DNA from: Steroidobacteraceae bacterium
GTDB lineage: Bacteria; Pseudomonadota; Gammaproteobacteria; Steroidobacterales; Steroidobacteraceae
DNA length: 64,000 bases
Direction of reading: 5' to 3'
Assembly: GCA_041395505.1 (NCBI GenBank)
Contig: JAWLAG010000002.1
Location: 555,556 to 619,555 of the forward strand
In this document: piece by piece, positions 47,582 through 64,000 of the stretch
How the letters are laid out: each line of letters starts with the position of its first letter
Position numbering within the stretch: the first letter of the stretch is position 1
Made by a program: the position numbers and the translations under genes
Notes under the pieces: model-generated
The model's input: only the letters and a program-made list of their open reading frames with translations
The model's database searches: none
Told to the model about the DNA's origin: nothing

Positions 47582-49474
47582 TCAGCTCTTCAGGCGATCC
47601 GCCAGCCGATCGAGGAGCTTGGAGAATTTCCTGGTGCGGTTGTCGACCTGCACACGCAAGTGCCGCACGCCCGAGTCGTTGAGCAATTCGCCGCGCCCGT
47701 TGTCGATCTGAAGCTCGCTCGCACCGAGGATTTCCAGCGTTTCCTCGAGCGATTGCGGTGCGCCCGCCGGCTTGCTGCGACGACCGGGCGCCGTCGCCTT
47801 GAACTTGCTCTTCTCGTTGCGTACCGCGTCGATCTTGGCGCGCACCTGCTCGGGCGCCATACGCTGGACGGGTTCGCGCGGCTTGGCCGTCGAAGTTTCC
47901 TGATCGACATCGAACAACTTGAACTCGCCGCTGGCACTGGTGTCGACCTGCGGCTTGCGACTGGCCTGGGCCTTGTCCGCGGCGCTGGCCGAATCGGCTG
48001 CAGCCCTGTCCTTCTCGCCCTGGCCGACAGGAACGACCGCAACGGATGCGAAGTCCGAGCGCACGTAATGCGCAACCTGTTTCGCGGATACCGCATCGGA
48101 GAAGAAACCGAGCCGCAGGCCGAACCATTTTCGGCCATCGCGATCGCCTTCGACGGTGTATAGCGTATAGGCGCTGAAAATCGCGAGCGGCGGCACCTGC
48201 GCCAGGTCGATCGGTGTGACCGACCAGTCGAGCTGCACGGCAAAGGAAACCGGGGCGTTGTTCTCGAGCTGGCCGCGCAGGGCCCGCATCGTGCCGGTAT
48301 CGTCTGGACGCAGCAGCTGAATGTCGTTGGCCTCCGCTTCGGCGCCGCGCAATGTCGCGCTGTCACCGCTGTCGGAGCGCTGGCGCTCGAGCATCTTGAG
48401 CACCTGTGTATCCGACAACTCGGGCTTGGCGAGCCGCGCCGTTGGCGAAGCCGGCGCAACAACGGCGGCAGGTGCTGCAGATGGAGCCACGACGGCAGGT
48501 GCCGCGGGTGGAGCGGCCTTGGCGGCCGGTACGCGAGTCGGCGTCGGTGGTACTTTTGCACTCGCTACGCGGGTAGCCGCCGGCGGCTGGGGCACGGCGC
48601 GTGGCGGCGATGTTACAGCCGGTTTGGCGCCGCCCAATTGCGCAAGCACCTCGCGCACATTCGACGGTGGTACGTTGTTGCGCGGCAGCTTCTTGCGTCG
48701 CTGTGAACTCCTGGGCTCTGCGGCCGGAATGACAGCCGGCTTGGCGGGTTGTCCCCTGACGGGCGCAGCGCCTGCCGGCGCACGCGCGGCAGATGTCGTC
48801 GGAGCGGGCTTGGCCGCGGGCGCTGTCGTGGGGGCGGCTATGGACGGACGCGCTGCAGTCGTTGGCTTGACCGCGGCCGGGCGCGGCGGTGTTGCAACCG
48901 GCGCGGCAACCGGTGCGCCTGCGCCTCGCGCCACGGTTGCGGGCGGTGACGCCTTGCGCGGTGCGCTCGGCGCAGCTGCCGGTGCTGGCACAGCCGCCTG
49001 GGCTGGCGCGGCCGGCGTCACCGACGCGGTGCGCGGAGAATTCTTGCCTACGACGCAGGCAACAACCGGCGCCGCCTTGGGCGCTGGCGTCGCCACAACA
49101 TTCGGTGCAGCCGCTCTGGACGGTGCGGGAGCGGCGGCCGGCGCTGCGGCCTGCCGGGCGGCAGCCAGCTTCTTGCCTGGCGCATCACCCACCCATGCCG
49201 CGGGATAGATTTCCCGGACGATGTTCAGGAGCTCATTGGCTTCGCGACGCGTCGCGAAATAGCCCATGTGCAGGCGGAATCGCTCCCGACCCTCTTCCCG
49301 TCGGCGACTGACAAAGAACGTAAACCGCGCAAGCTCCGGCGACTGCGGTTTCACGAGTGCCATTGGCGTCGTGGACGAAGACAGATTGATGACGAATTGT
49401 CCCGATTGAGCGCCGCCCGACGCGGGGCCCGCGTGCACACCTGAGTCGTCGAGAGAACTCGCCGGTCGATTCAT
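47582..49474 (-). CDS. SPOR-domain protein with long Pro/Ala-rich linker
   Basis: N-terminal SPOR-like module (QFVINLSSSTTP..RFRLHMGYFATRREANELLNIVREIYPAAWV). About 250 aa of low-complexity P/A/T/V-rich sequence. Second SPOR-like module (YTLYTVEGDRDGRKWFGLRLGFFSDAVSAKQVAHYV) and a charged C-terminal region. Confidence 0.6.
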   Translation of the reverse strand: MNRPASSLDDSGVHAGPASGGAQSGQFVINLSSSTTPMALVKPQSPELARFTFFVSRRREEGRERFRLHMGYFATRREANELLNIVREIYPAAWVGDAPGKKLAAARQAAAPAAAPAPSRAAAPNVVATPAPKAAPVVACVVGKNSPRTASVTPAAPAQAAVPAPAAAPSAPRKASPPATVARGAGAPVAAPVATPPRPAAVKPTTAARPSIAAPTTAPAAKPAPTTSAARAPAGAAPVRGQPAKPAVIPAAEPRSSQRRKKLPRNNVPPSNVREVLAQLGGAKPAVTSPPRAVPQPPAATRVASAKVPPTPTRVPAAKAAPPAAPAVVAPSAAPAAVVAPASPTARLAKPELSDTQVLKMLERQRSDSGDSATLRGAEAEANDIQLLRPDDTGTMRALRGQLENNAPVSFAVQLDWSVTPIDLAQVPPLAIFSAYTLYTVEGDRDGRKWFGLRLGFFSDAVSAKQVAHYVRSDFASVAVVPVGQGEKDRAAADSASAADKAQASRKPQVDTSASGEFKLFDVDQETSTAKPREPVQRMAPEQVRAKIDAVRNEKSKFKATAPGRRSKPAGAPQSLEETLEILGASELQIDNGRGELLNDSGVRHLRVQVDNRTRKFSKLLDRLADRLKS

Positions 49475-49763
49475 GAAGTTTTTCCCCGGAACAATAAAGC
49501 GTACGCACTGACCGGGCTTGCGTGGCGTCCGCTGGGGAATCGAAGGTCGAGGACGCGATGCGCCTCGTCGGTAACCCCGCTGTCCAACAATCGACGGACC
49601 GGAAGCTTTGCGTCCCCGCCTCGCGACGGGTTTGCCCTTGTCAGAGCGGTAGAGTGGACAAGCGTGTGTCATCCGTCAAGCAAGGACTGTGTGGTACGCG
49701 TCGCATTCCACCGACAGCTGCGCCCGCGCGCTGGGCAACCAGACATATTGCGCGCCGGCTATT

Positions 49764-50298: not shown

Positions 50299-53133
50299 TC
50301 AGCCGGTCGCCGTGTACGGCAGCGACTCCTGGACGCTCGGTCGCTGCGCCAGCAATGTACTGATCTTTCGCGCCGGCAGGGGCCGCGACAGGAGATGTCC
50401 CTGGATGAAATCACAGCCATGTTGACGCAGGAACTCCAGCTGCTCGGCCGTCTCGACTCCCTCGGCAACGACCTCCTTGCCGAGCGCATGGGCCATGGTG
50501 ATGATCGTGTCGGTAAGCGTGGCCGACGCGCCATCGGCTGGCAGGTCCTCGACGAAACTGCGGTCGATCTTGACCACCGCGATCGGGTGCTGCCGCAGAT
50601 AGTTCATGGCCGAATACCCAGTGCCGAAATCATCGAGCGCGATACGTATCCCCAACTTTGCCAGACGCTCGAGCGCATCGCCAGCCGCGCTGGCTGCGAG
50701 CACGGACTCGGTCAACTCGAATTCCACGCAACTGGGTTCGATGGAAAATCGCTGCAGAATACTTTCCGTCAAACCGAAGAACTGCGGGCTATCGAGCTGC
50801 TTGGCGGAGATATTGACGGCCAGCCGGGCCGGCGCAATCTCCTGCGCTCGCCATTCGGCATACTGTTCGCAGGCTGTTTCCAGGACCCAGGCGCCGATGT
50901 CGATGATCAGGCCCGACTGCTCGGCGGCTGGTACGAATTCCTTTGGATCGCGCGGTCGGCCCCGGCTCGCCTGCCAGCGCAGCAGGGCCTCCACCGCGAC
51001 GATTGCGCCGTTGCTGCTCGCGAACTGCGGCTGATAATAGAGCGCGAATTCGCGTCGCTCGAGGGCGCGATGCAGGCCGCTGGTCGTCGCGGTTATTTTC
51101 AGGTCCCGCATGCGCGGCTCGAAGAACACGGCGCGCCCGCGACCACTGTCCTTGGCGCGATACATCGCAAGGTCTGCGTTGCGCATGGCGTCCTCGGCAC
51201 TGGTCGCATCATCGGGCAGCATGGTCACGCCGATACTGGCACCGATCCGGTAGTCCCTGCCGCCGATGCTCACGGGCTTGTGCAGGCTGTGAACGATACG
51301 CTCCGCAACGACCTGCGCGGCCTGTGGATCGGCAATTTGCCGCAGGATGATCGTGAATTCATCGCCACCGATACGCGCGACCGTGTCGCCGTCCTTGACG
51401 CAGCCACGCAGACGTTGGGCCGCAATGGCCAGCACCTGATCGCCCGCAGCATGTCCCAGGCTGTCGTTGATCTTCTTGAAGTGATCGAGATCGACGAACA
51501 GGAGAGCGCTGCGTGCCGAGCCGCCGGCAACCGCGGCGACTTCCTGTTCCAGCCGGTCGGCGAGCAGCAGGCGGTTCGGCAGCCCAGTCATGCCATCGTA
51601 GTGGGCCTGGCGGTAGAGAACCGCATCGCGCGCCTGCTTCGACAGCGCGGCCGCGAGACGTCCGGCGAACTCCTCGACCTGTCTGGCGGTATCGGGTACG
51701 ACGCTGGGTGCATCCTGGAACCCGACTGCCAGCAAAGCACGTAGATCGCCTTCGACATTGACGGGCCACATCCAGAAATACTCGCTGCCGGCCTCGCGCA
51801 ACGGCGCAATGACGCTGTGGCGTGGTTCTTCGCAGCGCGCAATGGTCAGTCCCTGCGGTGAATTCTCGACCATTGGCAGCAGTTCGGCATCGATGGGCAC
51901 ACGCGACATTTCGGCAGCCGCACGCTGGGCTGTCAGGAAATAGTTGCGCCCATAGGAGCGCGTATTCGGATCGAGCAGCACGATGCATGATGACGCAGCA
52001 CCGGTCGTTCGCAGCAATCGCTCCAGCAGGCCATCGACGATGGCCTCGACATCATCGGCTGCGAGCAGCATCCGGTCGACTTCAGCCAGGGTTTCGAGCG
52101 AGCGGAACTCGCCCTCGATGCGCGTCGCGGCGCGGTTGTAGGCATCGACTGCATCGCTGATCTCATCGGCCCGACGCGGCTCCAACCGCGCCTGCTGGTG
52201 CCGGCCCAGCCGGTCGAGCGCCGTCTGCAGCGCGGCCAGCGGTGCAACGTACAGACCGGTGAGGTAGATGACCGCGGCACCCACCGCCAGCAGCAGCGAC
52301 AGCACGGCGGCGAGCGTGATCAGTACGCCACGGGCGGTGAGCAAAGCGCCAGGCGTATTGGCCTGCATGGTGAGCACGGTCAGCGATTGCGGCGCAACGA
52401 GCCCCGAGGGCAGTTGCAGCAGAGCGCTGTGACCCAGCCACTCCCTGCCGCCCGCCTGCCAGCCGAAGCGTTCGGCCGAGGTCTCGAATGCCGCTGGATC
52501 GAACTGCGCACTGACGCCGGTTGGCAGAACCGCGTCGCGCGGAAAACCCGGCGGCGTGAGCAGCGCGCCAGCACCTGCGACAAGTACCAGACCGAATGTG
52601 GGCGCCTGGTCCGGGTCGCTGCCCAGGAGCCAATGCCTGTCGAGTTCGAAGATCGCGAGCCGCGCCTCGGCGGCCGGGCCAATCCTGCGCACGACGAAGA
52701 TGCTGGTATCGCTGTCGAACTGCGCCGTCACCAGCGCAGCCGTATCGACGTTGCGCAGCACGTCCTCGCCAGCGCCGCTACGCATCAAGGTTCGCGCCAC
52801 GGTACCGTTGTGATCTGCCGGCACGACGGTGACCGAGCTGAATGCCGGCGAGACGATCACGTTGGCGCGCAGCACCCGATCGTCACGCCCCGATGCACCG
52901 GCCACCAGCACGGCACTCACGTCACGCGCCGCCGCCAGGCGACTCTGCAGGCCCGAAACGGCTGCTTCGCTGCGCGCCCCGAGCTCACTTTGCATTCGCC
53001 CGGACTCATCGACCGATCGCTGCCATGAGATCAGTCCGAAGAGCACCAGCAGCGGGGCGCATGCGGCCAGGGAGATGACTTCCGCCATCCGCTGGCCGAT
53101 CGATGTTCTCAGATGGCGAAGCAGCTTCTGCAT
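50299..53133 (-). CDS. Membrane sensor diguanylate cyclase/phosphodiesterase (periplasmic sensor-TM-HAMP-GAF/PAS-like-GGDEF-EAL)
   Basis: N-terminal TM, periplasmic region and second TM. GGDEF motif RIGGDEFTI. EAL motif EALLRW with downstream DDFGTGYS and catalytic E/Q residues. Confidence 0.85.
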   Translation of the reverse strand: MQKLLRHLRTSIGQRMAEVISLAACAPLLVLFGLISWQRSVDESGRMQSELGARSEAAVSGLQSRLAAARDVSAVLVAGASGRDDRVLRANVIVSPAFSSVTVVPADHNGTVARTLMRSGAGEDVLRNVDTAALVTAQFDSDTSIFVVRRIGPAAEARLAIFELDRHWLLGSDPDQAPTFGLVLVAGAGALLTPPGFPRDAVLPTGVSAQFDPAAFETSAERFGWQAGGREWLGHSALLQLPSGLVAPQSLTVLTMQANTPGALLTARGVLITLAAVLSLLLAVGAAVIYLTGLYVAPLAALQTALDRLGRHQQARLEPRRADEISDAVDAYNRAATRIEGEFRSLETLAEVDRMLLAADDVEAIVDGLLERLLRTTGAASSCIVLLDPNTRSYGRNYFLTAQRAAAEMSRVPIDAELLPMVENSPQGLTIARCEEPRHSVIAPLREAGSEYFWMWPVNVEGDLRALLAVGFQDAPSVVPDTARQVEEFAGRLAAALSKQARDAVLYRQAHYDGMTGLPNRLLLADRLEQEVAAVAGGSARSALLFVDLDHFKKINDSLGHAAGDQVLAIAAQRLRGCVKDGDTVARIGGDEFTIILRQIADPQAAQVVAERIVHSLHKPVSIGGRDYRIGASIGVTMLPDDATSAEDAMRNADLAMYRAKDSGRGRAVFFEPRMRDLKITATTSGLHRALERREFALYYQPQFASSNGAIVAVEALLRWQASRGRPRDPKEFVPAAEQSGLIIDIGAWVLETACEQYAEWRAQEIAPARLAVNISAKQLDSPQFFGLTESILQRFSIEPSCVEFELTESVLAASAAGDALERLAKLGIRIALDDFGTGYSAMNYLRQHPIAVVKIDRSFVEDLPADGASATLTDTIITMAHALGKEVVAEGVETAEQLEFLRQHGCDFIQGHLLSRPLPARKISTLLAQRPSVQESLPYTATG

Positions 53134-54470: not shown

Positions 54471-55811
54471 ATGAGGCGATTTGCGGCGTTGATCTGCGGC
54501 ATGCTGACCCTGTCAGCCGCCGCCTGGGCCCAGGACGACAGCGAGCGGCTGGCCCTCTATCAGCAATTTCGCGCCGAATTCGATGCGCGCCGCTTCGAGG
54601 ACGCACTGGCGCGGGCCAACGAGCTGGTCAGTGCGACCGAAAGCACTTTCGGCAACGATGCGCTCGAGCTGGCCATCCCGCTTACCAACGTCGGCACGAC
54701 CGCGCTGCGCCTCGGCAACCTGGGTCTTGCCGAGACATCCTATCTGCGCAGCGTCACGGTGCTCGATGCGAATACCCGCGGCGCCAATGCCGATCTCATC
54801 CCGCCGTTGCATGGACTCGGCCTGACCTACCTGGCGAAGAATGATCCGACGAGCGCCGCGATCGCACTACGCCGCGCGGTCGATCTGTCGCGTAACCTCA
54901 ACGGCCTATACAACATCGGGCAGCTGCCGATCGTGGAGTCGCTGATCAGCGCCGAGGTCGCGCTGAATCAGCTTGCGGACGCCGAGAAGGAGCACCAATA
55001 CGCCTATCGCATCGCGGAAACCAACTACGGCGCGACCGACCCGCGCATGTTGCCCGCCATGGCGAACTACGCGGCCTGGTTCGAGTCCATGGGCCGCTTC
55101 TCGACGGCACGGCGCATGTACGCGCAGGCACTCGGCGTTGCCGAGAACAGTCTGGGCAAAGCCGCCCTCGAGTCGGTGCCGCCATTGCGCGGGATCGCCC
55201 GCACCTACATGCTCGAATTCCTGCTCGGCTACGAGGATCCCGAGGCCAGCGCCGCTGCGCAGGATCCGTTTGCATCCCAGAACCAGACGGGCGCGCAACT
55301 GCAGCGGGTCAATACCGACGGCGAGAAAGCGCTGCTGATTGCGCTCGATCGCATCAACAAGGCGACACCACCCGATCTCGGATTGCGCGGCCAGACCCTG
55401 CTCGACCTCGGCGACTGGTACCTTGTGGGCGCCAATTCCGCCAAGGCGCTCGGTGTCTACCAGCAAGCCTGGCCCGACCTGGTGGCCAGCAACCAGTTGG
55501 ACCTGGTCGCGAAGCCGCGCCAGCTCGCCTACAAGGCGCCGTCGAGTTCCATCACGCGCTCGAGCTACGACCCCGACAAGGAGGATCTTCGGGTGGTCGA
55601 AGTGAAATGCAGCGTGAGCGAAACGGGCAAGATCGGCGATTGTGAGTCGATGCGCAGCGAGGCGTCGGACGCCCAGGAGCGCTCGGTGATTTTCGCGGCG
55701 AAGAAATCCCGCTATGCGCCACGCATGGAAAACGGGGTAACGGTACCGACCGAAGGCATCATCGTGCGCGACTCGCTCGTGGTCGCCAAGCCCGCGCCAC
55801 CGAAATCTTGA
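54471..55811 (+). CDS. Secreted TPR-like protein with TonB-C-like C-terminal domain
   Basis: Signal peptide MRRFAALICGMLTLSAAAWA. Helical-repeat body. C-terminal 80 aa (VVEVKCSVSETGKIGDCESMRS..YAPRMENGVTVPTEGIIVRDSLV) resembles a TonB/TolA C-terminal fold. Confidence 0.55.
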   Translation: MRRFAALICGMLTLSAAAWAQDDSERLALYQQFRAEFDARRFEDALARANELVSATESTFGNDALELAIPLTNVGTTALRLGNLGLAETSYLRSVTVLDANTRGANADLIPPLHGLGLTYLAKNDPTSAAIALRRAVDLSRNLNGLYNIGQLPIVESLISAEVALNQLADAEKEHQYAYRIAETNYGATDPRMLPAMANYAAWFESMGRFSTARRMYAQALGVAENSLGKAALESVPPLRGIARTYMLEFLLGYEDPEASAAAQDPFASQNQTGAQLQRVNTDGEKALLIALDRINKATPPDLGLRGQTLLDLGDWYLVGANSAKALGVYQQAWPDLVASNQLDLVAKPRQLAYKAPSSSITRSSYDPDKEDLRVVEVKCSVSETGKIGDCESMRSEASDAQERSVIFAAKKSRYAPRMENGVTVPTEGIIVRDSLVVAKPAPPKS

Positions 55812-55816
55812 CGCTG

Positions 55817-56611
55817 CTATCGCCCTGCGAGTCGTTCCTGTGGTGGTGGCACGGGCGCAGGCTCCGCGGCCGGCGGCACCGGTTCGGGTAGGGATGCCGG
55901 CGGCGACACAACACCAGTCGCCGGTGCCGTGTCGATGATGGGTACGGCCTCGATGCGATTCGCCCTCGCGCCAGTCGCACTCGCCAGCAGGGGCGCGCCA
56001 TCGCGCAACTGCGCCGCCAGCGTCATCTCGGGAAACTGCACCAGGAATTTCGCGACGGCATCGCGCATGGCGCGCTGGCTGGCGAGGATCAGCGGATTGC
56101 CGCTCGAGACACCCTTCGCGGCACTGTTGCCATAGCCGGTGAGCGTCAGGCTATCAACGGCTGCGCCATCGGGCGTCAGGACGTTGAATCGATAGCGAAT
56201 GGTGACGGCATAGTAGCCGCCACCGGTGTCCTTCGCGGTCGCGAAGGAGAACTGTTCGATCCTGGGTTCGAAAATCGCGCGTAATCCGCTCGCGGCATGA
56301 GCCTCCTCGAGCGTCGAGAACTCGGCGACATCCTTGAATTCCGCGCCGAACAAAGCGCGCACCATGGCAAGGTGGCCCGGTCCAAGTTCGATGGACCAGG
56401 GCACGCCCCAGCGCGATTCCTTATGGACGAAATTGCGCATGTCGGGCTGCACGAGCAGGCCGACGCGTGCTTCGATTGGATTGACGAGCGCACGCGGCAA
56501 CGCCACGGCAGGTGCGATTTCGACGCCGCCGCAGCCGACGATCAGCGCCGCGGCGAGGCAGGCGCCGACCGTTGCGCCAACGCGGCTCAGCGCTCGCCGC
56601 TGAGACACTTG
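55817..56611 (-). CDS. Lipoprotein with Pro-rich C-terminus (last gene of the MotA/VWA/FHA operon)
   Basis: Lipobox ..AAALIVGCGG. C-terminal PPASLPEPVPPAAEPAPVPPP. Start uncertain: ATG at 56692 would overlap the upstream gene by 105 nt, GTG at about 56611 is preferred. Confidence 0.5.
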   Translation of the reverse strand, partial: QVSQRRALSRVGATVGACLAAALIVGCGGVEIAPAVALPRALVNPIEARVGLLVQPDMRNFVHKESRWGVPWSIELGPGHLAMVRALFGAEFKDVAEFSTLEEAHAASGLRAIFEPRIEQFSFATAKDTGGGYYAVTIRYRFNVLTPDGAAVDSLTLTGYGNSAAKGVSSGNPLILASQRAMRDAVAKFLVQFPEMTLAAQLRDGAPLLASATGARANRIEAVPIIDTAPATGVVSPPASLPEPVPPAAEPAPVPPPQERLAGR

Positions 56612-57639
56612 CGCACCCCGCCAAATTCGACCGCAAAGCCGCAGGCGTCGTCCTGGGTGATGCCGACGAAGGTACCGTCGTTCTGCGCGCACATACTGCG
56701 CATTAAGGCGGAAAACTTGATGTTTGTAAATGCCGTGGGACCGGCCACGGCGGGGAATCCAATGGCATGGATGCGCACCATCTTGCGGCCGCCCTTGCCG
56801 GGCAGATTGACCGCCGCCACGGCATCGAGCGCCGTCTGGATGTAATCGCCGGTGTATTCATCGCCGAGCACATAGAGGCTGATGCGCTTGTCCGGCGCCC
56901 AATATCGCCTGATGGCCTCCACGATGCCTTCGACCGGGCTGGAATTGCTGTACGGCGCCCAGTCGGGCATGCGCTCGAGGATGCGCCGCCGCTGCCGGTC
57001 GTTGTCCTCGAGCCACTTGCCGCGGGTGCCCTCGAACATGGGCCGGCCCTCGTCGTCCATGACCTGCAGTCCCTTGACCTTGGGATAGATATCGAGGATT
57101 TCAGTCATCACACCGGCCGCCGTATCCCAGTGCTGGCCGTGCATGCTGTTCGAGGTATCGATGATGAAAATGATGTATTCGCTGTCGACTGGAATGCCGC
57201 CGATCGCGTCCGAACGCAACGGCCGGTCGGGTACCTTGGCTTCGAGCAGCTTGACGTCGGCCGTCAACTGCCGGTAGGCGTCTGCCAGCTCGTTCTCGAC
57301 GATATCGCTCACGCTCGCTTCGTTGCGCGATGTCTTGAACTCACCGCGCACGCTGCTGATATCGCCGGCAAGACGGCTCAGGCGCCTTTTCTCGATCGTG
57401 AGCTTGTCGATGCGACCCTGCAATTCGCGGTTGAGTTGATCGGTCTCGCCGCGCAACGCGAACAGCTCTTCCTGCAGTTTCTTCAATTGCTGGGACAGGT
57501 CCTGTCGCGATTTTTCGATGATCACGGGCTGGCCGAATTCCGACAGCACGAGAAGCAGGATAACCGCGCCGAAACCGCAGCAAATGCAGTCGATGAACGA
57601 CAGGCTGATGATTTCGGTCTCGCGTTGTCGCCGCTTCAT
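56587..57639 (-). CDS. ExbD/TolR-like TM helix + coiled coil + VWA-domain protein (paralog 1)
   Basis: N-terminus MKRRQRETEIISLSFIDCICCGFGAVILLLVL has a single TM helix with buried Asp (compare ExbD/TolR NxTPxIDVxxVLL). Coiled coil follows. VWA domain with MIDAS DTSNS (FIIDTSNSM) and downstream Thr/Asp. Confidence 0.8.
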   Translation of the reverse strand: MKRRQRETEIISLSFIDCICCGFGAVILLLVLSEFGQPVIIEKSRQDLSQQLKKLQEELFALRGETDQLNRELQGRIDKLTIEKRRLSRLAGDISSVRGEFKTSRNEASVSDIVENELADAYRQLTADVKLLEAKVPDRPLRSDAIGGIPVDSEYIIFIIDTSNSMHGQHWDTAAGVMTEILDIYPKVKGLQVMDDEGRPMFEGTRGKWLEDNDRQRRRILERMPDWAPYSNSSPVEGIVEAIRRYWAPDKRISLYVLGDEYTGDYIQTALDAVAAVNLPGKGGRKMVRIHAIGFPAVAGPTAFTNIKFSALMRSMCAQNDGTFVGITQDDACGFAVEFGGVRKCLSGER

Positions 57640-58724
57640 GGCCAGTCCCGCGATGGCATCACGAAACTGCCGCCGCTCTTGCGCGCGACCATCCAGTAAC
57701 GATGTGTCGCAGGCAGATCGCCTTTCATGGGCAGCAAAACGACGTCGATGGGCGTCTTTGCGGGCAGGTCACGCGTTGCGGCATCGAACAGTTTGGCGCG
57801 ATCGCGCACGGAGATGTATTTGGCGAATCCCGGCGGGGTGCTGCCCTGCGTTGGCAGGCCATCGGTGATCAACACGATCTGATCCGGCGCAGGCTTCAGG
57901 TCCTTCAAAGCCGCCAGCGCATTGACCAGGCTCGTGCCCTCCTCCGGTACGAGTTCACGGACGGCGTCGCGCAAGCGTCCGCGTGTGGCGCGGTCATCGG
58001 CACGCAACCACTTGCCTGCAGTCTCGCCGAGCACGGCCTTCGAATTGACGTTGAATGCATACAGCTGGTAGCTCGATTCGCCGGGCAACTGCGTGCTGAG
58101 CCAGTCGACGATGCGCACTGCGCGGCGCCACTTCTCGGTGCGCCGGCGCGTCTCAGGCGCGGTATTGCGCAAACGAAGGATCTCCACGACGTCGTCGTGC
58201 ATCATGCTGGCCGAGCGGTCCAGCAGGATCAGGATTCGCTTGCCACGCAAATTAAGGCCATTGATATAGCGTCTCGGACCGCCACGCAGCTTGCCCGTCG
58301 CCGAGGGTAGATCATCTTCGCCCGCACGCGCCGACAACCGCCGCGATTCCTCCTCCAGCGAACGCACGTCGGCCTTCAGTTTCTCGATGTGCTCGCGTCG
58401 CGCCAGCGTCTCCTTGTCGAAGACGGACGACTGCTCGCGCCGTTCCTGGATCTCCTGCACGAAGCGTCGCGCGCGCTCGGCGGCGGATGCGGTTTCACTG
58501 GTGGTCTTCTCGAGCGTATTGCGCAACACGACCAGATTCTTGGTGCCTTCCAGCACTTCGATTTCGAGACGGCTGACTTCGGCCGCGAGATCGTCGGTAC
58601 GCCGGATACGCTCCTGGCCGCTTTGTGCGCTGATGATGGTATAGAAAAGGATCACGGCACCGAAGCCGCAGCTGATGCAGTCGAGGAAGGACAGGCTGAA
58701 GACTTCGACCTTGCGGCGGGGCAT
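57636..58724 (-). CDS. ExbD/TolR-like TM helix + coiled coil + VWA-domain protein (paralog 2)
   Basis: N-terminus MPRRKVEVFSLSFLDCISCGFGAVILFYTII. Coiled coil. VWA MIDAS LLDRSASM, downstream T and D (VLITDGLPT). Its stop overlaps the paralog-1 start (ATGA). Confidence 0.8.
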   Translation of the reverse strand: MPRRKVEVFSLSFLDCISCGFGAVILFYTIISAQSGQERIRRTDDLAAEVSRLEIEVLEGTKNLVVLRNTLEKTTSETASAAERARRFVQEIQERREQSSVFDKETLARREHIEKLKADVRSLEEESRRLSARAGEDDLPSATGKLRGGPRRYINGLNLRGKRILILLDRSASMMHDDVVEILRLRNTAPETRRRTEKWRRAVRIVDWLSTQLPGESSYQLYAFNVNSKAVLGETAGKWLRADDRATRGRLRDAVRELVPEEGTSLVNALAALKDLKPAPDQIVLITDGLPTQGSTPPGFAKYISVRDRAKLFDAATRDLPAKTPIDVVLLPMKGDLPATHRYWMVARKSGGSFVMPSRDWP

Positions 58725-58726
58725 GC

Positions 58727-60046
58727 TCAGTCGCCAGCCAGAAACTGCGCATAGATCGGCGGACTGCCGATGCGCAGCAGGTCACCGGCATGCAGCGGCG
58801 TGCGCTTCGCGACGCGTTGGCCGTTGTGGAAGCTGCCGTGGCGACTGTGATCCACGAGGTAGTGCCGGTCGCCATCGGCCTCGATGGTGCAGTGATGGCG
58901 CGACACGCCCTGCGCGTTTGCCGGCAACGGAATATCGCAGCCCTCGCGCCCAAGGGTCCTGTGTTCGGCAGCCAATTCGAAACGCTGGCCGTTGATGGCG
59001 ATTGCGGTGGGCGTTGCCGGGGTCGCACTTCGAATCGGCGTCCAGGCCGGCGCGAACACGGGCTCTGCCAGTGTCGGCACGGCAAGTGCCAGTGCGAGCC
59101 CCGAACCTGCGACCGCTTGCCGCGATGCCGCCATCGCCGCGACGCCTTGTGGCAGCAGTGCCATTCGACCCGCGCAGACCGCCGCGATCGCCACCGGGAA
59201 ACCTGGCCAGTGCTCGCAGTGCCGCGGCAGGAGAAGCGAAACGTCGCTCACGGCGCCGAGCTCCGCCAGCACTTGCTGCACGCGCTCATAGAGTGGCGCT
59301 GCGGCGTACTGCAGGTCGGCCGCCGCAATCCTGGCGGTGAACGCTCGTCCCTGCGAACTCAGTTGTACCTGTGCCAATTGCCCGTGCGCCAGACGCTCCA
59401 GCACACGCGGCAGCGCATCGTATAGCTGTTGTTCGAGCTGTCCGTGATGGAGAGGATCGAAGCGGGTCTGGCGCACCATGCTGGCCGCGATGCACTCGAG
59501 CCACAGCTCCTGCATGCGGATCAGCCCGATGCCCTCCACGGTTACGGATCGCAGCCTGCGCGCAGCCGCGCCGGTTTCTACCAGGCTTGCAGCAACGTGA
59601 TGAAGACCCACTTCGAGCACGATCGCGGCACCTTGCACGCCGCTTGCAGCCGCGCTGAGTGCAGCAGCGTCGCACAGTTGCGGCTCGGGCAACTCGAGCG
59701 CCGCGAACAGTCCGGGAATCACGCCGAGCGGAGCGATGTCGAAGCGCGCCGGGACGGCGACGACGTACTGGTCGTCGCTGCCGCCGTAGCTGGCAAGACG
59801 CCTGCGTAACTCGCTCGCAAGCAGCATGTTGTTGGCATCATCGTCGCCGTTGCCAAGCTGCAGGCTTTGCCAGTGATCGCTGCTGACCCGTTCCGGCGCC
59901 TCGCGCAGCAGGGATTGCGCGTCATCGCCGAGGCTGCCGTTGCCGGCCGAGCCATTGTCGACGAGGCTCGGTCGGCAATCGAGCAACACGCCGTCGCTCG
60001 CGATGGCATACGACGCGTCGTCGACATGCAGACCGAGGCAGGCCAT
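58727..60046 (-). CDS. Actin/Hsp70-like N-terminal domain + C-terminal FHA-domain protein
   Basis: C-terminal FHA (LGREGCDIPLPANAQGVSRHHCTIEADGDRHYLVDHSRHGSFHNGQRV..GDLLRIG). N-terminus LGLHVDDASYAIASDG..YVVAVPARFD..LCDAAALSAAA resembles phosphate-1/adenosine motifs of sugar-kinase/Hsp70/actin ATPases (tentative). Start set at MACLGL so the gene abuts motA-like without overlap. Confidence 0.75.
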   Translation of the reverse strand: MACLGLHVDDASYAIASDGVLLDCRPSLVDNGSAGNGSLGDDAQSLLREAPERVSSDHWQSLQLGNGDDDANNMLLASELRRRLASYGGSDDQYVVAVPARFDIAPLGVIPGLFAALELPEPQLCDAAALSAAASGVQGAAIVLEVGLHHVAASLVETGAAARRLRSVTVEGIGLIRMQELWLECIAASMVRQTRFDPLHHGQLEQQLYDALPRVLERLAHGQLAQVQLSSQGRAFTARIAAADLQYAAAPLYERVQQVLAELGAVSDVSLLLPRHCEHWPGFPVAIAAVCAGRMALLPQGVAAMAASRQAVAGSGLALALAVPTLAEPVFAPAWTPIRSATPATPTAIAINGQRFELAAEHRTLGREGCDIPLPANAQGVSRHHCTIEADGDRHYLVDHSRHGSFHNGQRVAKRTPLHAGDLLRIGSPPIYAQFLAGD

Positions 60047-60051
60047 GGCCG

Positions 60052-60891
60052 TCAGTGCGCCTGCATGTTGCGGATGACTTTCTGATCGAGATAGGTTTCG
60101 GCATCGTGCACGAGCCGCTCCTGCACGAGCTGCAACTGGTGCAGCAGGAACATCAGCAGTATCGACAGCAACAGCGCGATCAGCGTTGAATTGAATGCCA
60201 CACCGAGTCCGGCGGTGACGCCGCTGATATCGCCCGATACAGCCTTGTGTGCCTGCGAGAGTGCATCGCCGATGCCGCGCACCGTACCGATGAAGCCGAT
60301 GGCCGGTATGGCCCAGGCGATGTAGCGCAGCATCGACAGCTCCGAATCGAGACGCTCGGACTCGGTCTCGCATACCGCGTGGGCCACATCGGACACGTCC
60401 TGGACGTTTCGCGTCGCGCCAAACCGTCCGAGTGCGGCAAGGAGTGCGCGCGGCACGAGCGCGTTGCGTTGCTCAGCCGGCAGCGCCTCGAGTTGCCGCG
60501 AGTACTCGCGCGTGTCCTCGGGCAGTATGCGCATGCCCTCCGGAATGCGCAGTACTTCCCCGTCCAGGATCTGCCGCTCGCGACGCTGCGACAGGGCCTT
60601 GTAGCCCATGATCGCAAGGGCCCAGAGCATGAGGATGATCTCGGATTCCTGCTCGTAGTCCTTGATGAGGATGTAGGGACTGCGCTCGGCGACGAAATTC
60701 GGGTCCTGGTCCATGGCGAGTTTCTGCGCGGCCATGATGGCATTCGCCGTCGGTCGCACATGCAGGACATAGATCGTGTGTACCAGCAGGATCGCCAGCA
60801 TCAGCGCCGCTACGTTGAATGAAAACTCATTCGGATAGCGCCGCAGCTGCAGCAGATTGGCCGGACTGGAAATTGCATTCGTGTCATTCAT
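60052..60891 (-). CDS. MotA/TolQ/ExbB-family proton-channel protein
   Basis: 3-4 TM helices with conserved C-terminal block AIPAIGFIGTVRGIGDALSQA..GVAFNSTLIALLLSILLMFLL. Confidence 0.85.
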   Translation of the reverse strand: MNDTNAISSPANLLQLRRYPNEFSFNVAALMLAILLVHTIYVLHVRPTANAIMAAQKLAMDQDPNFVAERSPYILIKDYEQESEIILMLWALAIMGYKALSQRRERQILDGEVLRIPEGMRILPEDTREYSRQLEALPAEQRNALVPRALLAALGRFGATRNVQDVSDVAHAVCETESERLDSELSMLRYIAWAIPAIGFIGTVRGIGDALSQAHKAVSGDISGVTAGLGVAFNSTLIALLLSILLMFLLHQLQLVQERLVHDAETYLDQKVIRNMQAH

Positions 60892-60906
60892 GGTCTGCGC
60901 CTGCAG

Positions 60907-61182
60907 TTAGATGTCGATTGGAAACGAGACGTTATTGTCAGCCGAATCGCGCATGCTCGGGTCGCTCTCCGCATCCGCGCCCTGGCTCAAGGGTTCGGCC
61001 GGCTTTTCCTGGGCCTGCGGCTCCGCGGTATCCGTTTTCTCCACGGGCTCCTGCTGTTGCGCCTGTGCTTCCTGGGCCAGGAGGCGCGTACCGTAGAGAA
61101 CGGCGGTGCCACAGAGCAGCGCCGCAAGGGCGGTCAGGGCGATCAACGCCAGGGTCTGGCGCTCAGCGCGACGCAAGGGCAT
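60907..61182 (-). CDS. Small single-TM protein with acidic/Gln-rich tail
   Basis: 91 aa, TM LALIALTALAALLCGTAVLYG. Packed between motA-like and the upstream FHA-PEGA-FGE gene (20-nt overlap). Confidence 0.45.
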   Translation of the reverse strand: MPLRRAERQTLALIALTALAALLCGTAVLYGTRLLAQEAQAQQQEPVEKTDTAEPQAQEKPAEPLSQGADAESDPSMRDSADNNVSFPIDI

Positions 61183-63652
61183 TGCTGTCCTCCTCGGTGT
61201 ACTGCACGCCAGCGGGATCAGCGTAGCGCGCTATCCGAAACCCAAGATTGTTGGCTGCGACATCGCCGGCCTCGCGCCAGGCCAGGCGCAGCTCGGCGGT
61301 GAGCGTCGTGCGCCAGCTTGCGCCGCGAAACACATGGCTGCGCCCACTCTCCGGGCCCAGCGGGTCGATACTCGCCTCTCGATCCGGAAACGCGGCGTAA
61401 CGATCATTGACCCACTCGGACACGTTGCCGCCCATGTCGAAGAGTCCGGAGGGATTGGCTGGAAACCGGCCGGTTGGTGCGACTGCCTTGTACTCGTCAC
61501 TGTGGCCCGCAAGCGCCGAGCCGAGAATGCCGCCCGCCTCGCTGCCACCGAGATTGTCCCGCCCGCTCGGCACGGGCAGGCTGTTCCCCCAGGCATAACG
61601 CAGGAGACCGCCCGGGGACACGCGCGCCGCGTACTCCCATTCGGCCTCGGTCGGCAGACGATAGCCATCGCCGACGGGCGTACGCAGCACCCAGTGGTCC
61701 GAACGCCGCTCGTAGGCTTCGGCGAGTCCGGCTTCACGTGACAACCAATTGCAATACTCGACGGCCTCTGCCCAGTCGACACCGGTGACGGCCTGGGAGT
61801 CGAGATCGATGCTGAGATCGCCGACGATGCCCGACTTGTGATCGGGGCGAAATCGCCGAAATTCGCCGTTGCTGACTTCGGTCACGCCGATGTAGAACGG
61901 GCGCTTCAGCGTGACCGCGCGCAGCGACTCATTGGGACGTCGCCCCTGTTCGCGCCGCGCGCTGCCCATGTTGAACTGACCGCCCGTGATGAGCTGCAAG
62001 GCAGCACCCGTGGGCGCGCGGATGGTTCGCGCCAGGGCTTCGCGGCGCGCACCGGGACGGAACAGCTGGTAATCAACCTGGCGCGCCACGCCCGGTAACA
62101 GCGCCACCTTCTGCGTGAGGGGTTCGAAACCCTCGGCGCGCAACTCCAGCTGGTAATCGCCTGCCGGCAGATCAACGCGAAGCGGCGCGCGTCCACGGAC
62201 GACACCGTTGATGAATACATCGGCCGCGGCGGGTTCGCCGGCTATATTCAGACTCACGTTGAGCGCTTCGAGTGCAACCTTGAGCTGCTCGGTCTTGCCT
62301 GCCACTGCCGTGAACTGCACGGCGCGGCTGCGATAGCCACGCCGCGACACCAGCACCGGATAATCGACTCCCGGTGCGAGACTGACAGTCAGTGGCGTGC
62401 GGCCACGATACTTGCCGCCGACAGAAACCTCCGCCGCGGAAGGCTGACTGCGAACCTCGAGCAGTGCATCCGGTGCGCCAAGATCGATGGGACCAAGATC
62501 CATCGTCCGGCCCGCCTGCACCACGACGCTGCTGTCCCAGGCACGGGCGTCGCTCGCCGTGATGCGCAGCCTGTGTACGCCGGCAGGCAGCTCGAGACGC
62601 GCCGGAAGCGCTTGCGCCGGTTGGTCGTCGACGCGAAGCAGGGCGGCCGCGCTGCTGCTCGAGACATTGACGACGCCCCAGTCGGGTTGCATTTCGATTG
62701 CGATCGTCTGTCGCAGGCCACCACCCTCGACGTCGATCTTGCCGATCGCATCGAGATAGCGCTTGGCCCGCAGGGTGATGGTATGCGCGCCCGGCTTGAT
62801 CTCGAGCTCGCCCGGCACTTTCCCCGCCTCGGCACCATCGACGTAGGCGAGCGCAGCGATGTCGGCCGTGTCGACCGTCACGAGACCCGGCTTCCTGACG
62901 AGCCGGATCCGGACCGGTGCGGTCATGCCGTCGCTCGCCACGATCGCGACTTCGCCATCGTAATAGCCCTCGCGGCGCGCGCGCAGCTGGTGTCGACCTG
63001 CAAATACGAACAGGGTGTCGCCGGCATGCCAGCTGAACAGGCTGCCTGTCGCGCGAACGTTGAGGTCATTGGGCGCCAGATCGAGCGGCACGCGAATCAG
63101 CGCGGCAATGAACAGCGTCGTTGCGAGCGCCGCGGCGGAGACCGCCGCCAGCACCCAGCGCAGGCGTTGGGTCGGCGGTGCGGCTGAGCGGCGACGAGGG
63201 AGCGTTGTGCCGACCGGAAGCTGCACCGCAATGGGCTTGATGGCGATCGACTCTTCGCTGTGGGTCACCACGCGAGTCGTAGCGGGAAGTTGCCCGGGCG
63301 CCTGGGTGCGATTGGCAACATCGTGCTCGACGTCGAGGGCGAGTGTGCCGTCCGCCTCCTGCAAACGAAGTTGCACGCGGCCGCAGTGAACGACATCGCC
63401 CGGCGCGAGATCGTGGTGATCATCGAGACGGTCGCCATTGACGTCGACTGCGGGGGCGCCGGCGAGCTTCACGAGCCGCAGCCGACCGTCGATGACTTCG
63501 ATGTTGAGCATCGGCCCGGTCGGGCCGGGCACGACGATCGTCGCACCGGCCCCGCCGATGGTCAGCGGCAGCCGCATCCGCCGCTGCCCCTGCGGCTCGA
63601 TGATCGTCAGGTCGGTGAGTTCGCGCATTGCGGGACGCGCGCCGGTGGTCAT
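61163..63652 (-). CDS. FHA + TM + PEGA repeats + FGE-sulfatase (SUMF1-like) domain membrane protein
   Basis: N-terminal FHA-like (LPLTIGGAGATIVVPG..LAPGDVVHCGRVQLRL). TM (WVLAAVSAAALATTLFIAALI). Several PEGA-like repeats (VSVGGKYRGRTPLTVSLAPGVDYPVLVSRRGY, VFINGVVRGRAPLRVDLPAGDYQLELRAEGF). C-terminal FGE-sulfatase fold (GVDWAEAVEYCNWLS..YRLPTEAEWEYAAR..MGGNVSEWVND..GFRIARY). Confidence 0.8.
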   Translation of the reverse strand: MTTGARPAMRELTDLTIIEPQGQRRMRLPLTIGGAGATIVVPGPTGPMLNIEVIDGRLRLVKLAGAPAVDVNGDRLDDHHDLAPGDVVHCGRVQLRLQEADGTLALDVEHDVANRTQAPGQLPATTRVVTHSEESIAIKPIAVQLPVGTTLPRRRSAAPPTQRLRWVLAAVSAAALATTLFIAALIRVPLDLAPNDLNVRATGSLFSWHAGDTLFVFAGRHQLRARREGYYDGEVAIVASDGMTAPVRIRLVRKPGLVTVDTADIAALAYVDGAEAGKVPGELEIKPGAHTITLRAKRYLDAIGKIDVEGGGLRQTIAIEMQPDWGVVNVSSSSAAALLRVDDQPAQALPARLELPAGVHRLRITASDARAWDSSVVVQAGRTMDLGPIDLGAPDALLEVRSQPSAAEVSVGGKYRGRTPLTVSLAPGVDYPVLVSRRGYRSRAVQFTAVAGKTEQLKVALEALNVSLNIAGEPAAADVFINGVVRGRAPLRVDLPAGDYQLELRAEGFEPLTQKVALLPGVARQVDYQLFRPGARREALARTIRAPTGAALQLITGGQFNMGSARREQGRRPNESLRAVTLKRPFYIGVTEVSNGEFRRFRPDHKSGIVGDLSIDLDSQAVTGVDWAEAVEYCNWLSREAGLAEAYERRSDHWVLRTPVGDGYRLPTEAEWEYAARVSPGGLLRYAWGNSLPVPSGRDNLGGSEAGGILGSALAGHSDEYKAVAPTGRFPANPSGLFDMGGNVSEWVNDRYAAFPDREASIDPLGPESGRSHVFRGASWRTTLTAELRLAWREAGDVAANNLGFRIARYADPAGVQYTEEDSNALASR

Positions 63653-63659
63653 GTCGGCC

Positions 63660-64000
63660 TCAGATGGCTTCGTCGCAGCGCACGATGACCGTCTGAACGC
63701 TCTCTCCCGGCGTTACGACTATCTCGCGGCGCACGTCGCGGTAGCCGGTACGCGTACCGACCACGACATAACGTCCGGGTTTCAGTTCGACTTGTCGTCG
63801 CATGAAGCTTCCGTACTGCCCGACACGCGTGATGCTCACCGTGGTCGCGTCGTCAGACTCGAGCACGACCGATACTGGTTTGTCGTATTCGGGCAGCAAA
63901 AGTTCGATTCGGGCGATCTGCGAGCGCAGCACGGGTCCCTGGGGACTGATGCCGCGGGCCTGCTCGAGGAGCGAGTCGGCCTCGTTGCGGACTTCGGCAG
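63660..64000 (-). CDS. PEGA-domain protein, N-terminal part outside the window (partial)
   Basis: C-terminal sequence ..VSITRVGQYGSFMRRQVELKPGRYVVVGTRTGYRDVRREIVVTPGE is a PEGA repeat. The frame stays open to the window end. Confidence 0.5.
   Translation of the reverse strand, partial: AEVRNEADSLLEQARGISPQGPVLRSQIARIELLLPEYDKPVSVVLESDDATTVSITRVGQYGSFMRRQVELKPGRYVVVGTRTGYRDVRREIVVTPGESVQTVIVRCDEAI

Follow-up and report, generated by a model that had tools for sequence, protein, structure and literature searches.

A TolQ-like channel subunit encoded with paired VWA-domain proteins in a conserved operon of Steroidobacteraceae: a predicted ion-driven envelope motor associated with a Ser/Thr kinase

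What work might a proton-channel subunit of the TolQ/ExbB/MotA family perform when its gene lies beside two genes for membrane-anchored VWA-domain proteins instead of exbD, tolR or motB? The question is raised by a tightly packed minus-strand operon (positions 55817-64000, G+C approximately 63-67%) in a stretch of 64,000 nucleotides from Steroidobacteraceae bacterium (assembly GCA_041395505.1, contig JAWLAG010000002.1, positions 555,556-619,555), referred to here as the window. Ion-driven motors of the 5:2 type are understood in flagellar rotation, TonB uptake, the Tol-Pal system, gliding and the type IX secretion system (T9SS), and Zorya. With moderate confidence, the operon is interpreted here as encoding an inner-membrane motor of the same 5:2 (TolQR/ExbBD/MotAB) type, driven by the proton motive force (PMF) and gated, in this lineage, by a Ser/Thr kinase.

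An initial annotation of this DNA had described eight closely packed, partly overlapping frames, and inspection of the open reading frame (ORF) list and of start codons confirms all eight (8/8) as co-directional minus-strand frames in 55817-64000, with overlaps of 4, 20 and 22 nt. In transcriptional order, with a convergent neighbour last, the features are:

63660..64000, minus strand: 3' end of a kinase/TPR protein, last approximately 112 codons, running past the window edge
61163..63652, minus strand: G7, 829 amino acids (aa), with a degenerate FHA domain, a transmembrane (TM) helix, and PEGA and FGE-sulfatase-like domains (Pfam; profile versus PDB)
60907..61182, minus strand: G6, 91 aa, with a signal peptide or anchor, an acidic linker and a C-terminal motif
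60052..60891, minus strand: G5, 279 aa, a proton-channel subunit of the TolQ/ExbB/MotA family (Pfam MotA_ExbB)
58727..60046, minus strand: G4, 439 aa, with an Hsp70-nucleotide-binding-domain-like region and an FHA domain (Pfam; profile versus PDB)
57636..58724, minus strand: G3 (VWAa), 362 aa, with a TM helix, a long helix and a VWA domain (Pfam; AlphaFold2 (AF2); Foldseek)
56587..57639, minus strand: G2 (VWAb), 350 aa, a paralogue of G3 (BLASTP; motif)
55817..56608, minus strand: G1, 263 aa, a lipoprotein (lipobox)
54471..55811, plus strand: convergent neighbour, 446 aa, a TPR/TonB_C-like protein (Pfam)

The start of G6 overlaps the end of G7 by 20 nt and is served by a good ribosome-binding site (GAGGAGGA); the ATG of G4 lies 6 nt past the G5 stop codon, giving 439 aa rather than the maximal 548-aa ORF; G3 and G2 are joined by an ATGA, an overlap of 4 nt; and G1 begins with GTG, overlapping G2 by 22 nt. 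The boundaries of G5, G2 and the 263-aa G1 agree with those in public contigs of 1.4 kb and 3.4 kb that encode identical G5 and G2 proteins.

The gene order is not peculiar to the window. From a set of one genome per species, 45 related loci (designated by L and a number) were recovered in Gammaproteobacteria, Desulfobacteraceae and Opitutales, the hosts being Woeseiaceae, Chromatiales, Panacagrimonas (including the isolate P. perspica DSM 26377, L022), Salinisphaerales, one Desulfobacteraceae metagenome-assembled genome (MAG), and many Opitutales/Verrucomicrobia. Mapping was by tblastn with the window proteins and three upstream proteins of L001, and the scan is biased toward motif-keeping loci because it was seeded partly by the peptide DCISCGFG. 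The proteobacterial order is U409 (a lipoprotein gene), kinase/TPR, PEGA-FGE, small ORF, MotA-like, Hsp70-like, VWAa, VWAb and, in some cases, a lipoprotein; Opitutales keep the core of MotA-like, Hsp70-like, VWAa and VWAb, with their PEGA-FGE, TPR and U409 genes approximately 3 kb off on the opposite strand. Because the order recurs in 45 loci of three phyla, a point that the initial annotation had proposed to check, the arrangement is not due to chance. Inheritance appears to be family-wide and vertical. A search of 72,556 plasmids gave no homologue of G3 and one partial, weak match to G5, and no homologue was found in 2.9 million viral contigs.

The assignment of G5 to the MotA/TolQ/ExbB family, already proposed for it, is upheld by a match to Pfam PF01618 (MotA_ExbB) at 4.3e-15 (56.0 bits, above the gathering cut-off of 22.9), and no gene for ExbD, TolR or MotB lies nearby. 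The best NCBIfam match of G5 is TolQ (1.7e-7, 31.2 bits, not reaching the equivalog cut-off of 221), the ExbB model scores 19.9 bits, under its equivalog cut-off of 135, and the nearest solved relative, in a profile search of PDB, is TolQ (8odt, 1.7e-3). Two segments, GFIGTVRGI (containing T203) and AFNST (containing S235 and T236), are invariant in 44 G5 orthologues from three phyla, and homology to TM2 and TM3 of TolQ would place T203 and T236 in the lumen, as the conserved Thr ring. In all loci that reach far enough the VWA pair is preceded, at 1.3-1.5 kb, by a MotA_ExbB gene, the exception being L031, in which no MotA-like match was detected by tblastn mapping. Two further parts of G5 are absent from TolQ and ExbB: an extra N-terminal hydrophobic helix (residues 27-45), and a loop (residues 47-82) with a near-invariant K77-D-Y-E80-Q81 just ahead of the next helix.

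If G5 forms the channel, the candidates for its axle are G3 and G2, which, to judge from 24% identity (BLASTP, 2e-12), are anciently diverged paralogues. Pfam identifies VWA_2 in G3 (6.8e-8) and, weakly, VWA in G2, coiled-coil-type matches being noise. Each protein has a single hydrophobic segment, at residues 13-31. In G3 a short basic N-terminus is followed by a TM helix with an invariant Asp15 (FSLSFLDCISCGFGA), and the VWA domain carries a DxSxS of the MIDAS type; the TM motif of G2 is similar, with its Asp at Asp17. The consensus after the basic N-terminus is F-S-[LM]-S-F-[LI]-D-x-x-x-C-G-F-G-A in both paralogues, and S13, F14, D16, C20, G21 and G23 (numbered by alignment A4) are invariant among 73 distinct N-terminal sequences of the two. 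An invariant polar Asp together with CGFG within the TM helix, kept by both paralogues in three phyla, is not what a passive anchor would usually show. AF2 predicts for G3 (114-sequence alignment; mean predicted local distance difference test score 87.6) an unbroken helix (residues 8-133), a low-confidence linker of approximately 25 residues (134-160) and a VWA fold (163-355), for which Foldseek returned VWA domains first (4fx5, BatB 3ibs, calcium-channel alpha2delta). The TM Asp and the MIDAS Asp stand at a near-fixed spacing, of 143-157 in VWAa and 136-144 in VWAb. The MIDAS of VWAb is invariant (D-T-S-G-S-M in 43/43 and D260 in 43/43), and that of VWAa is canonical in 35 of 44 orthologues. 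The two genes are neighbours in the window and wherever else a related locus spans both; the contig of L045 ends inside VWAa. The G3 family has 2285 matches among the candidates scored, and it comprises 1409 clusters at 50% identity, nearly all of approximately 360 aa; the cluster members listed are from Puniceicoccaceae and a marine gammaproteobacterial MAG, with no Idiomarina among them.

A conventional axle protein was not found in addition to the VWA pair. With the E. coli proteins as phmmer queries (the ExbD query being correct at 140/141 residues by comparison with PDB), no ExbD or TolR homologue was detected at E<=1e-3 among all ORFs of the window and 46 loci, and Pfam, NCBIfam and PADLOC scans of the operon returned no ExbD, TolR or MotB family. 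The periplasmic C-terminal domain of ExbD/TolR is also absent from G3 and G2, which have the long helix and the VWA domain in its place. Of the earlier description of these two paralogues, the single TM helix, invariant Asp, long helix and VWA/MIDAS domain are borne out, but the resemblance to ExbD/TolR is statistically undetectable: sequence homology of the TM helix to ExbD, TolR or MotB was tried by Pfam, PDB profile search and hhalign, and rejected as non-significant by all three. An axle role of G3 and G2 is therefore proposed from context, topology, conservation and the Asp rather than from TM-helix homology.

Control by phosphorylation is suggested by the gene at the window edge. The frame ending at 63660 (63660-63932 in the ORF list) has no upstream in-frame stop as far as the edge, and over 113 aa its product shares 57% identity with the C-terminal end of the 857-aa protein L001:2623-5196, which has a protein kinase domain (Pkinase, 4.1e-34), a TM helix and TPR repeats. 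Its own Pfam matches are weak (CarboxypepD_reg/PEGA), and it had been taken for a further PEGA protein; the open frame and the identity with L001 mark it instead as the C-terminal end of a membrane Ser/Thr kinase. A kinase had indeed been expected upstream, and it is present both as this stub and in the orthologues, Pkinase being found in those loci of Steroidobacteraceae, Woeseiaceae and Chromatiales that reach that far. No PP2C phosphatase gene was found within 10 kb in L001.

Two proteins of the operon carry FHA domains. That of G4 is canonical (Pfam, 1.3e-15), retaining the phosphothreonine-binding residues (GREG...GVSRHH...SRHGSFHNG), and its best NCBIfam match is TagH (5.8e-12, far under the cut-off of that model). 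The N-terminal 330 residues or so of G4, searched against PDB as a 31-sequence profile (A1), match Hsp70 nucleotide-binding domains (SSB1 at 5.2e-6 and HSPA1A at approximately 3e-4, positions 68-314), for which reason the actin/Hsp70-like-FHA description given in the initial annotation holds. No hydrophobic segment was found in G4, which by its sequence is cytoplasmic and devoid of TM segments. G7 likewise contains every domain first attributed to it (FHA, TM, PEGA and FGE), two of them in altered form. Its TM helix (residues 168-186) places the FHA domain in the cytoplasm and the PEGA/FGE-like part in the periplasm. The N-terminal profile matches the FHA domain of Ki-67 in PDB (2.5e-5), and the GR and SxxH residues that bind phosphothreonine are replaced, so that this FHA domain is not of the phosphothreonine-binding type.

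The periplasmic part of G7 matches FGE-sulfatase (9.3e-45) and PEGA (3.6e-34) in Pfam, and orthologues of the protein occur in 40 loci. In the alignment with human FGE (1y1e), '...GGSYMChrSYCYRYR' is paired with '...GASWRT..TLTAELR', so that Thr stands at the positions of both C336 and C341; a catalytic FGE is ruled out by the loss of both catalytic Cys residues, and on the same ground the domain would be a binding or scaffold module. G7 also matches the NCBIfam model of GldK at 8e-26 (91.3 bits, under the cut-off of 350) and PorK in PDB at 7.9e-13; its TM helix is internal, and a lipobox is lacking.

The kinase and FHA domains have a common distribution. Where the contig covers that part, the kinase domain and the G4 FHA domain are found together in Steroidobacteraceae, Woeseiaceae and Chromatiales, and both are undetected in 11 loci of Panacagrimonas and Salinisphaerales (L014, L016, L017, L019-L024, L039 and L043, compared with L003-L013, L018, L040, L044 and L046). 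The weakly conserved N-terminal FHA domain of G7, detectable by BLAST in the window and in seven kinase-bearing loci, follows the same pattern there. For P. perspica (L022), Pfam gave no kinase or FHA match on the TPR/beta-sandwich, PEGA-FGE and Hsp70-like proteins. Most Opitutales loci have no kinase domain, their TPR protein aligning to the periplasmic part of the kinase alone, and one Opitutales G7 examined starts at the TM helix, without the N-terminal domain; in some Opitutales loci the Hsp70-like protein retains a weak FHA domain, and in L035 a separately encoded kinase is found close by. Lineages in which the kinase and FHA domains are undetected still keep the periplasmic parts of these proteins. 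Joint presence and absence across lineages thus suggests a periplasmic core to which the kinase and FHA domains were added as a layer, the parts of which travel together. Phospho-regulation, as first suggested, is supported by the kinase and FHA domains here, but it would be a lineage-specific trait, these domains being jointly undetected in the Panacagrimonas/Salinisphaerales group.

Several smaller proteins accompany this core. G6 had been listed as a tiny TM protein; it proves to be a signal-peptide protein with an acidic low-complexity linker and the conserved C-terminus D-[QE]-x-[IV]-x-[FL]-P-x-[DN]-[IL]-COOH (in the window, ...SADNNVSFPIDI). Such an ORF occurs exactly once per locus, flanked by the PEGA-FGE and MotA-like genes, in the window and a further 29 related loci (gammaproteobacterial loci and the Desulfobacteraceae locus L002), and D(-10) and P(-4) are invariant in the 30 ORFs. 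In eight Opitutales loci a small ORF beside the FGE gene ends in ...FP[AV]DI or ...IPTDL. A relaxed form of the motif ends 38 of 11,605 raw ORFs, and all of these (38/38) are at the expected place. The C-terminal motif is a candidate ligand for the VWA MIDAS, for a TPR carboxylate clamp, or for the TonB_C-like domain. G1, which has the lipobox LIVGC and no Pfam or NCBIfam match, is a lipoprotein as annotated, but the Pro-rich tail by which it had been characterised is specific to the window genome and not conserved; its family comprises 14 ORFs of Steroidobacteraceae and the Panacagrimonas/Salinisphaerales group, with an invariant Cys.

The convergent gene at 54471-55811 probably provides the system with a periplasmic accessory protein. 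In place of the TM anchor and Pro-rich spacer of TonB, its product carries a signal peptide and TPR repeats (TPR_12, 6e-20), and its TonB_C match falls just short of the cut-off (5.5e-5, 24.0 bits versus 24.6). Its orthologue adjoins the operon downstream in L001 (L001:12938-14212) and in P. perspica opens the operon and is co-directional with it (L022:408-1757; TonB_C, 2.5e-4).

At the other end of the operon, upstream of the window end, L001:1397-2623 and its orthologues encode U409, a conserved lipoprotein with no sequence-level family, 72-87% identical among close relatives and more conserved than the VWA proteins. Its AF2 model comprises a TolB-N/PelC/CsgG-like domain, a helix of approximately 70 residues and a hydrophobic helical hairpin, a fold resembling the ring-forming lipoproteins PelC, CsgG and PqiC and a flagellar LPHT-ring protein. 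A relationship between G1 and U409 was ruled out, the signal-peptide region alone being matched by hhalign. Upstream of U409, L001:972-1376 and its counterparts in 23 other loci encode a protein with a Gly/acidic low-complexity centre, no family match, and a conserved C-terminal motif, DDD[IV]VA[RK]QLREAA..E.DPELR..LWEEYR.Y.

The core of this operon has a precedent. A recent study (PMC12204202; Mol Biol Evol 2025;42(6):msaf138) described TolQ-like genes tightly linked to genes for TM-anchored 'TPH-vWA' proteins, whose trans-pore helix is TolR/ExbD-like with a conserved Asp, and which are 'predominantly found in heterologous pairs' with no tolR, exbD or motB alongside. A pentamer with a conserved Thr was described, AlphaFold 3 (AF3) models placed the pair of Asp residues within the Thr ring, the distribution was given as 'predominantly throughout Proteobacteria and Verrucomicrobia' and the function as unknown, the seed being from Idiomarina loihiensis. 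Since a stator whose ExbD-like helix is fused to a VWA domain was thus published in 2025 as a computational prediction, and since every sequence-level feature of that family is found here, the G5/G3/G2 operon is best placed in the predicted family, and the suggestion in the initial annotation that the system was undescribed no longer applies to the motor core. By term counts, the text of PMC12204202 mentions no kinase, FHA, Hsp70-like, PEGA/FGE-sulfatase, lipoprotein or small C-terminal-motif component, whereas the operon has these. VWA partners go unmentioned in further recent surveys of the relatives of MotAB and ExbBD, and a literature search on the full operon, by combinations of PEGA, FGE, FHA, ExbB, VWA and kinase, found no description of it. 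In the literature searched, the accessory set, the co-variation of kinase and FHA domains, the catalytically dead FGE, the PelC/TolB-N-fold lipoprotein and the G6 motif are unreported.

From the observed domain content, conservation, invariant residues, absence of ExbD/TolR and phyletic coupling, a stoichiometry, a rotation, partner contacts and a physiological output may be proposed as follows. G5 would form a TolQ-like pentamer, in which a G3/G2 heterodimer takes the place of an ExbD, TolR or MotB dimer as the axle. The N-in TM helices of G3 and G2 would occupy the lumen of the pentamer, with their proton-accepting Asp residues, protonated from the periplasm, facing the Thr/Ser residues of G5. 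Each axle protein would continue into a periplasmic helix of approximately 100 residues (approximately 15 nm at 1.5 Å per residue), probably paired as a coiled coil, from which a flexible linker and the VWA/MIDAS head would extend the arm toward the outer membrane; proton flow might then turn, or pull and retract, an arm of fixed length that grips a ligand through the MIDAS metal-ion site. G7 could provide a PEGA/FGE-like scaffold, its FHA-TM-helix part docking on the pentamer in the style of GltG, TolA or TonB, and its resemblance to GltG suggests that it may be a TolA-like peripheral partner. Further partners may include the TPR/beta-sandwich ectodomain of the kinase, the TPR/TonB_C protein, and the lipoproteins G1 and U409 (PelC/TolB-N fold), with the invariant acidic C-terminal peptide of G6 as candidate ligand; confidence in all of these partners (G7, the kinase ectodomain, the TPR/TonB_C protein, the lipoproteins and G6) is lower than in the motor core. 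The membrane Ser/Thr kinase would gate or recruit the machine and the canonical FHA domain of G4 would read phosphothreonine, as the co-variation of these domains suggests. The output would be envelope work, either tethering and remodelling of the outer membrane or export and positioning of surface components, and not defence.

A broader proposal, put forward tentatively and with less than even confidence, is that the whole set of 10-11 genes encodes a single, hitherto undescribed machine that spans the envelope and differs from Tol, Ton, Agl-Glt, T9SS and Zorya in the ways itemised below. The set would comprise the TPR/TonB_C protein, the low-complexity protein, the PelC/TolB-N-fold lipoprotein, the kinase/TPR protein, the FHA-TM-PEGA-FGE protein, the peptide with the C-terminal motif, the TolQ-like pentamer, the Hsp70-like/FHA protein, the heterodimeric VWA axle and the lipoprotein. 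In such a machine the PMF would drive a VWA-tipped heterodimeric axle of fixed length, the FHA-TM-helix protein would be docked on the pentamer, the ...FPxDI-COOH end of G6 would bind the MIDAS (or a TPR) site, and the Hanks-type kinase would have been recruited later and be read by FHA domains.

Several considerations weigh against the interpretation of the locus as a kinase-gated 5:2 motor, or reduce its novelty. The family described in PMC12204202 would make the operon a member of the TPH-vWA family already predicted there, not a new kind of system. The ExbD-like character of the TM helix goes undetected in profile comparisons: the N-terminal 50 residues of the VWA proteins have no Pfam match at E<=10, the profile of VWA N-termini (A4) retrieved no ExbD, TolR or MotB from PDB, and hhalign gave the TM helix a probability of approximately 1% against an ExbD/TolR mini-alignment, the best local alignment (lSFLDc on tPfIDv) setting the Asp in register with D25 of ExbD and D23 of TolR. 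The 5:2 stoichiometry, the heterodimer and the contact between Asp and Thr are suggested by the published AF3 model and by analogy, and all members of the system are known here from genes and predictions. The MIDAS of VWAa is degenerate in 9 of 44 orthologues. The catalytic part of the kinase lies beyond base 64000, Pkinase being seen in the orthologues alone; the Hsp70-like domain of G4 shows no evident Gly-rich phosphate-2 loop and may perhaps not bind ATP; and with no outer-membrane beta-barrel or substrate identified in the locus, the proposed output is a guess.

The likeness of G7 and U409 to parts of assembly machines raises the alternative of a dedicated apparatus for export, secretion or surface assembly, in which the motor would drive a periplasmic or outer-membrane ring in the manner of PorLM with PorK/PorN; the ring would be made of the FGE-fold G7 and the PelC/CsgG-fold lipoprotein, and G6 would be a substrate, pilot or plug by virtue of its C-terminal motif. 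This would be a more specific version of the envelope-machine idea, with support at the level of folds: the FGE-like domain of G7 matches PorK/GldK and has no catalytic Cys, U409 is folded like PelC, CsgG, PqiC and a flagellar LPHT-ring protein, and G6 combines a signal peptide with an invariant tag at its C-terminus. It is nevertheless considered unlikely, given the GldK score of 91 against a cut-off of 350 bits, the absence from the locus of an outer-membrane channel, ATPase, sortase-like enzyme or set of cargoes, and the inner-membrane anchoring of G7, unlike the lipoprotein PorK, formation of a ring being hypothetical. That the locus is primarily a sensor, its motor-plus-VWA arm detecting load, mechanics or a ligand and its engagement controlling the kinase and FHA proteins with signalling as the output, is rated decidedly unlikely. 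The periplasmic TPR/beta-sandwich ectodomain of the kinase, the presence of FHA readers, the co-variation of kinase and FHA domains, and a GGDEF-EAL gene nearby in both the window and L001 would suit a sensor, but no transcription factor or other output domain is linked, and the motor, VWA pair, PEGA-FGE protein, TPR protein and lipoproteins are intact in lineages with no detected kinase or G4 FHA domain; because the machine persists there, signalling cannot be its core function.

The VWA proteins might also not be an axle at all, G5 working alone or with an ExbD/TolR encoded elsewhere while G3 and G2 are anchored bystanders like BatA and BatB. BatB is indeed among the VWA structures closest to G3, and the TM helix has no significant similarity to ExbD/TolR; yet the Asp and CGFG are invariant inside that helix in both paralogues and three phyla, linkage is strict and partly translationally coupled, ExbD/TolR is absent from 46 loci, and the published AF3 model (PMC12204202) sets the Asp pair in the Thr ring, so that bystander status appears very unlikely. 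Least credible of all, and highly improbable, is a role in phage defence or conflict in the manner of Zorya, with a membrane sensor resembling MotAB; the initial annotation had named a conflict module as one option. VWA, FHA and FGE-like domains are known from some conflict systems, and G5 has weak ZorA matches in PADLOC (best 8.8e-5), confined to the shared MotA/ExbB region; against this, the scans revealed no ZorB, ZorC, ZorD or ZorE, no nuclease, helicase, protease, NTPase, MoxR or toxin domain and hence no effector, and the synteny is stable and set in a chromosomal housekeeping context, with no G3 on plasmids and no viral copies. A defence system was rejected on the PADLOC result, which amounted to ZorA-region and coiled-coil noise with no system identified, and on the lack of plasmid and viral homologues. 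The MoxR-vWA ternary conflict systems (eLife 2020) were also rejected, the locus having neither MoxR nor an effector, and MotA not appearing in that paper. The kinase-gated envelope motor stays the preferred interpretation.

The genes flanking the operon in the window are chromosomal housekeeping genes (HrpB, YgiQ, UvrA, NlpC/P60 and a GGDEF-EAL protein), and the flanks are partly common to the window and L001. A large sensor GGDEF-EAL gene lies within a few kb of the operon in both (window 50299-53133, minus strand; L001:16977-19661, an orthologous locus at 60% identity). At 41649-47270 (plus strand) the window encodes an 1873-aa protein consisting of two tandem copies of UvrA, with two UvrA equivalog matches and a match to a PRK00635-type model of approximately 1800 aa. 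Between this double UvrA and the NlpC/P60 hydrolase, at 47582-49672 (minus strand), is the gene of a 696-aa Ala/Pro-rich protein, for which a search of NCBIfam gave no match.

The family is found widely among Gammaproteobacteria, Desulfobacteraceae and Opitutales of soils and sediments and, if the interpretation given here is right, swaps the ExbD, TolR or MotB axle for two VWA-tipped stalks. The three-gene prediction is extended to a parts list, in which the TM Asp and the Thr ring, the MIDAS, the C-terminal peptide and the contacts of FHA domains and kinase are set out. The lineages with and without the kinase constitute a natural experiment, and Panacagrimonas perspica DSM 26377 is a cultured host. 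Should the kinase truly gate the motor, this would be the first control of the 5:2 motor class by Ser/Thr phosphorylation; should the whole set be a single machine, it would represent a new physiological use of 5:2 motors as well as the first phospho-gated one.

How, then, does the operon compare with the systems that it resembles? The initial judgement that its layout is not that of Ton, Tol, Mot, Agl/Glt, Gld or Zorya stands. As in Tol-Pal and Ton, G5 belongs to the same channel family, the axle candidates have an N-in single TM helix with an Asp near its cytoplasmic end, and one of the linked proteins carries a TonB_C-like domain. Unlike in those systems, the axle would be a heterodimer of paralogues devoid of the ExbD/TolR periplasmic domain, G5 has an extra N-terminal helix and misses the TolQ and ExbB equivalog cut-offs widely, and in place of a TM-anchored TonB or TolA with an SHLS-type helix there is a secreted, TPR-rich TonB_C-like protein. 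The statement that no TonB/TolA partner exists was nonetheless too strong, in view of this linked TPR/TonB_C-like protein and of the GltG-like architecture of G7.

GltG of the Agl-Glt system of Myxococcus, an FHA-TM-helix protein with a periplasmic extension, has been predicted to bind to the AglR pentamer by way of its TM helix and FHA domain (PMC11761067). The operon shares with Agl-Glt a TolQ/ExbB-type motor, a protein of the GltG plan (G7), TPR proteins, a TonB_C-like domain and a distal VWA domain, which in Agl-Glt is that of the adhesin CglB. It differs in that the Agl axle is the TolR-like AglQ/AglS and the Agl VWA domain is on an outer-membrane lipoprotein, in that G7 ends in a PEGA/FGE-like region and not in TonB_C, and in having none of the Glt outer-membrane barrels, GltI, AglZ or MglA. 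With the T9SS and gliding motor GldLM (PorLM) it would have in common a 5:2-type motor and an axle protein with a long periplasmic arm, and with PorK/PorN a partner of non-catalytic FGE-sulfatase fold (PorK; here G7); the sequences of GldL and GldM are unrelated to G5, G3 and G2, Sov, PorV and other T9SS genes are absent, and G7, with its inner-membrane anchor and cytoplasmic FHA domain, is unlike PorK, a lipoprotein of the outer membrane. Zorya (ZorAB) likewise combines a MotA/ExbB-family subunit, to which the weak PADLOC matches of G5 are due, with a non-canonical partner, but the operon lacks the tail of ZorA, the peptidoglycan-binding domain of ZorB and the effectors ZorC, ZorD and ZorE, and its surroundings are neither a defence island nor mobile. 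Finally, the threonine-phosphorylation pathway of the type VI secretion system (T6SS; PpkA, Fha1/TagH) also brings a Hanks-type membrane kinase together with FHA readers and a periplasmic VWA domain in a single envelope module; T6SS genes are absent from the operon, and the VWA domain, which in PpkA is part of the kinase, is here carried by the putative axle of the motor.

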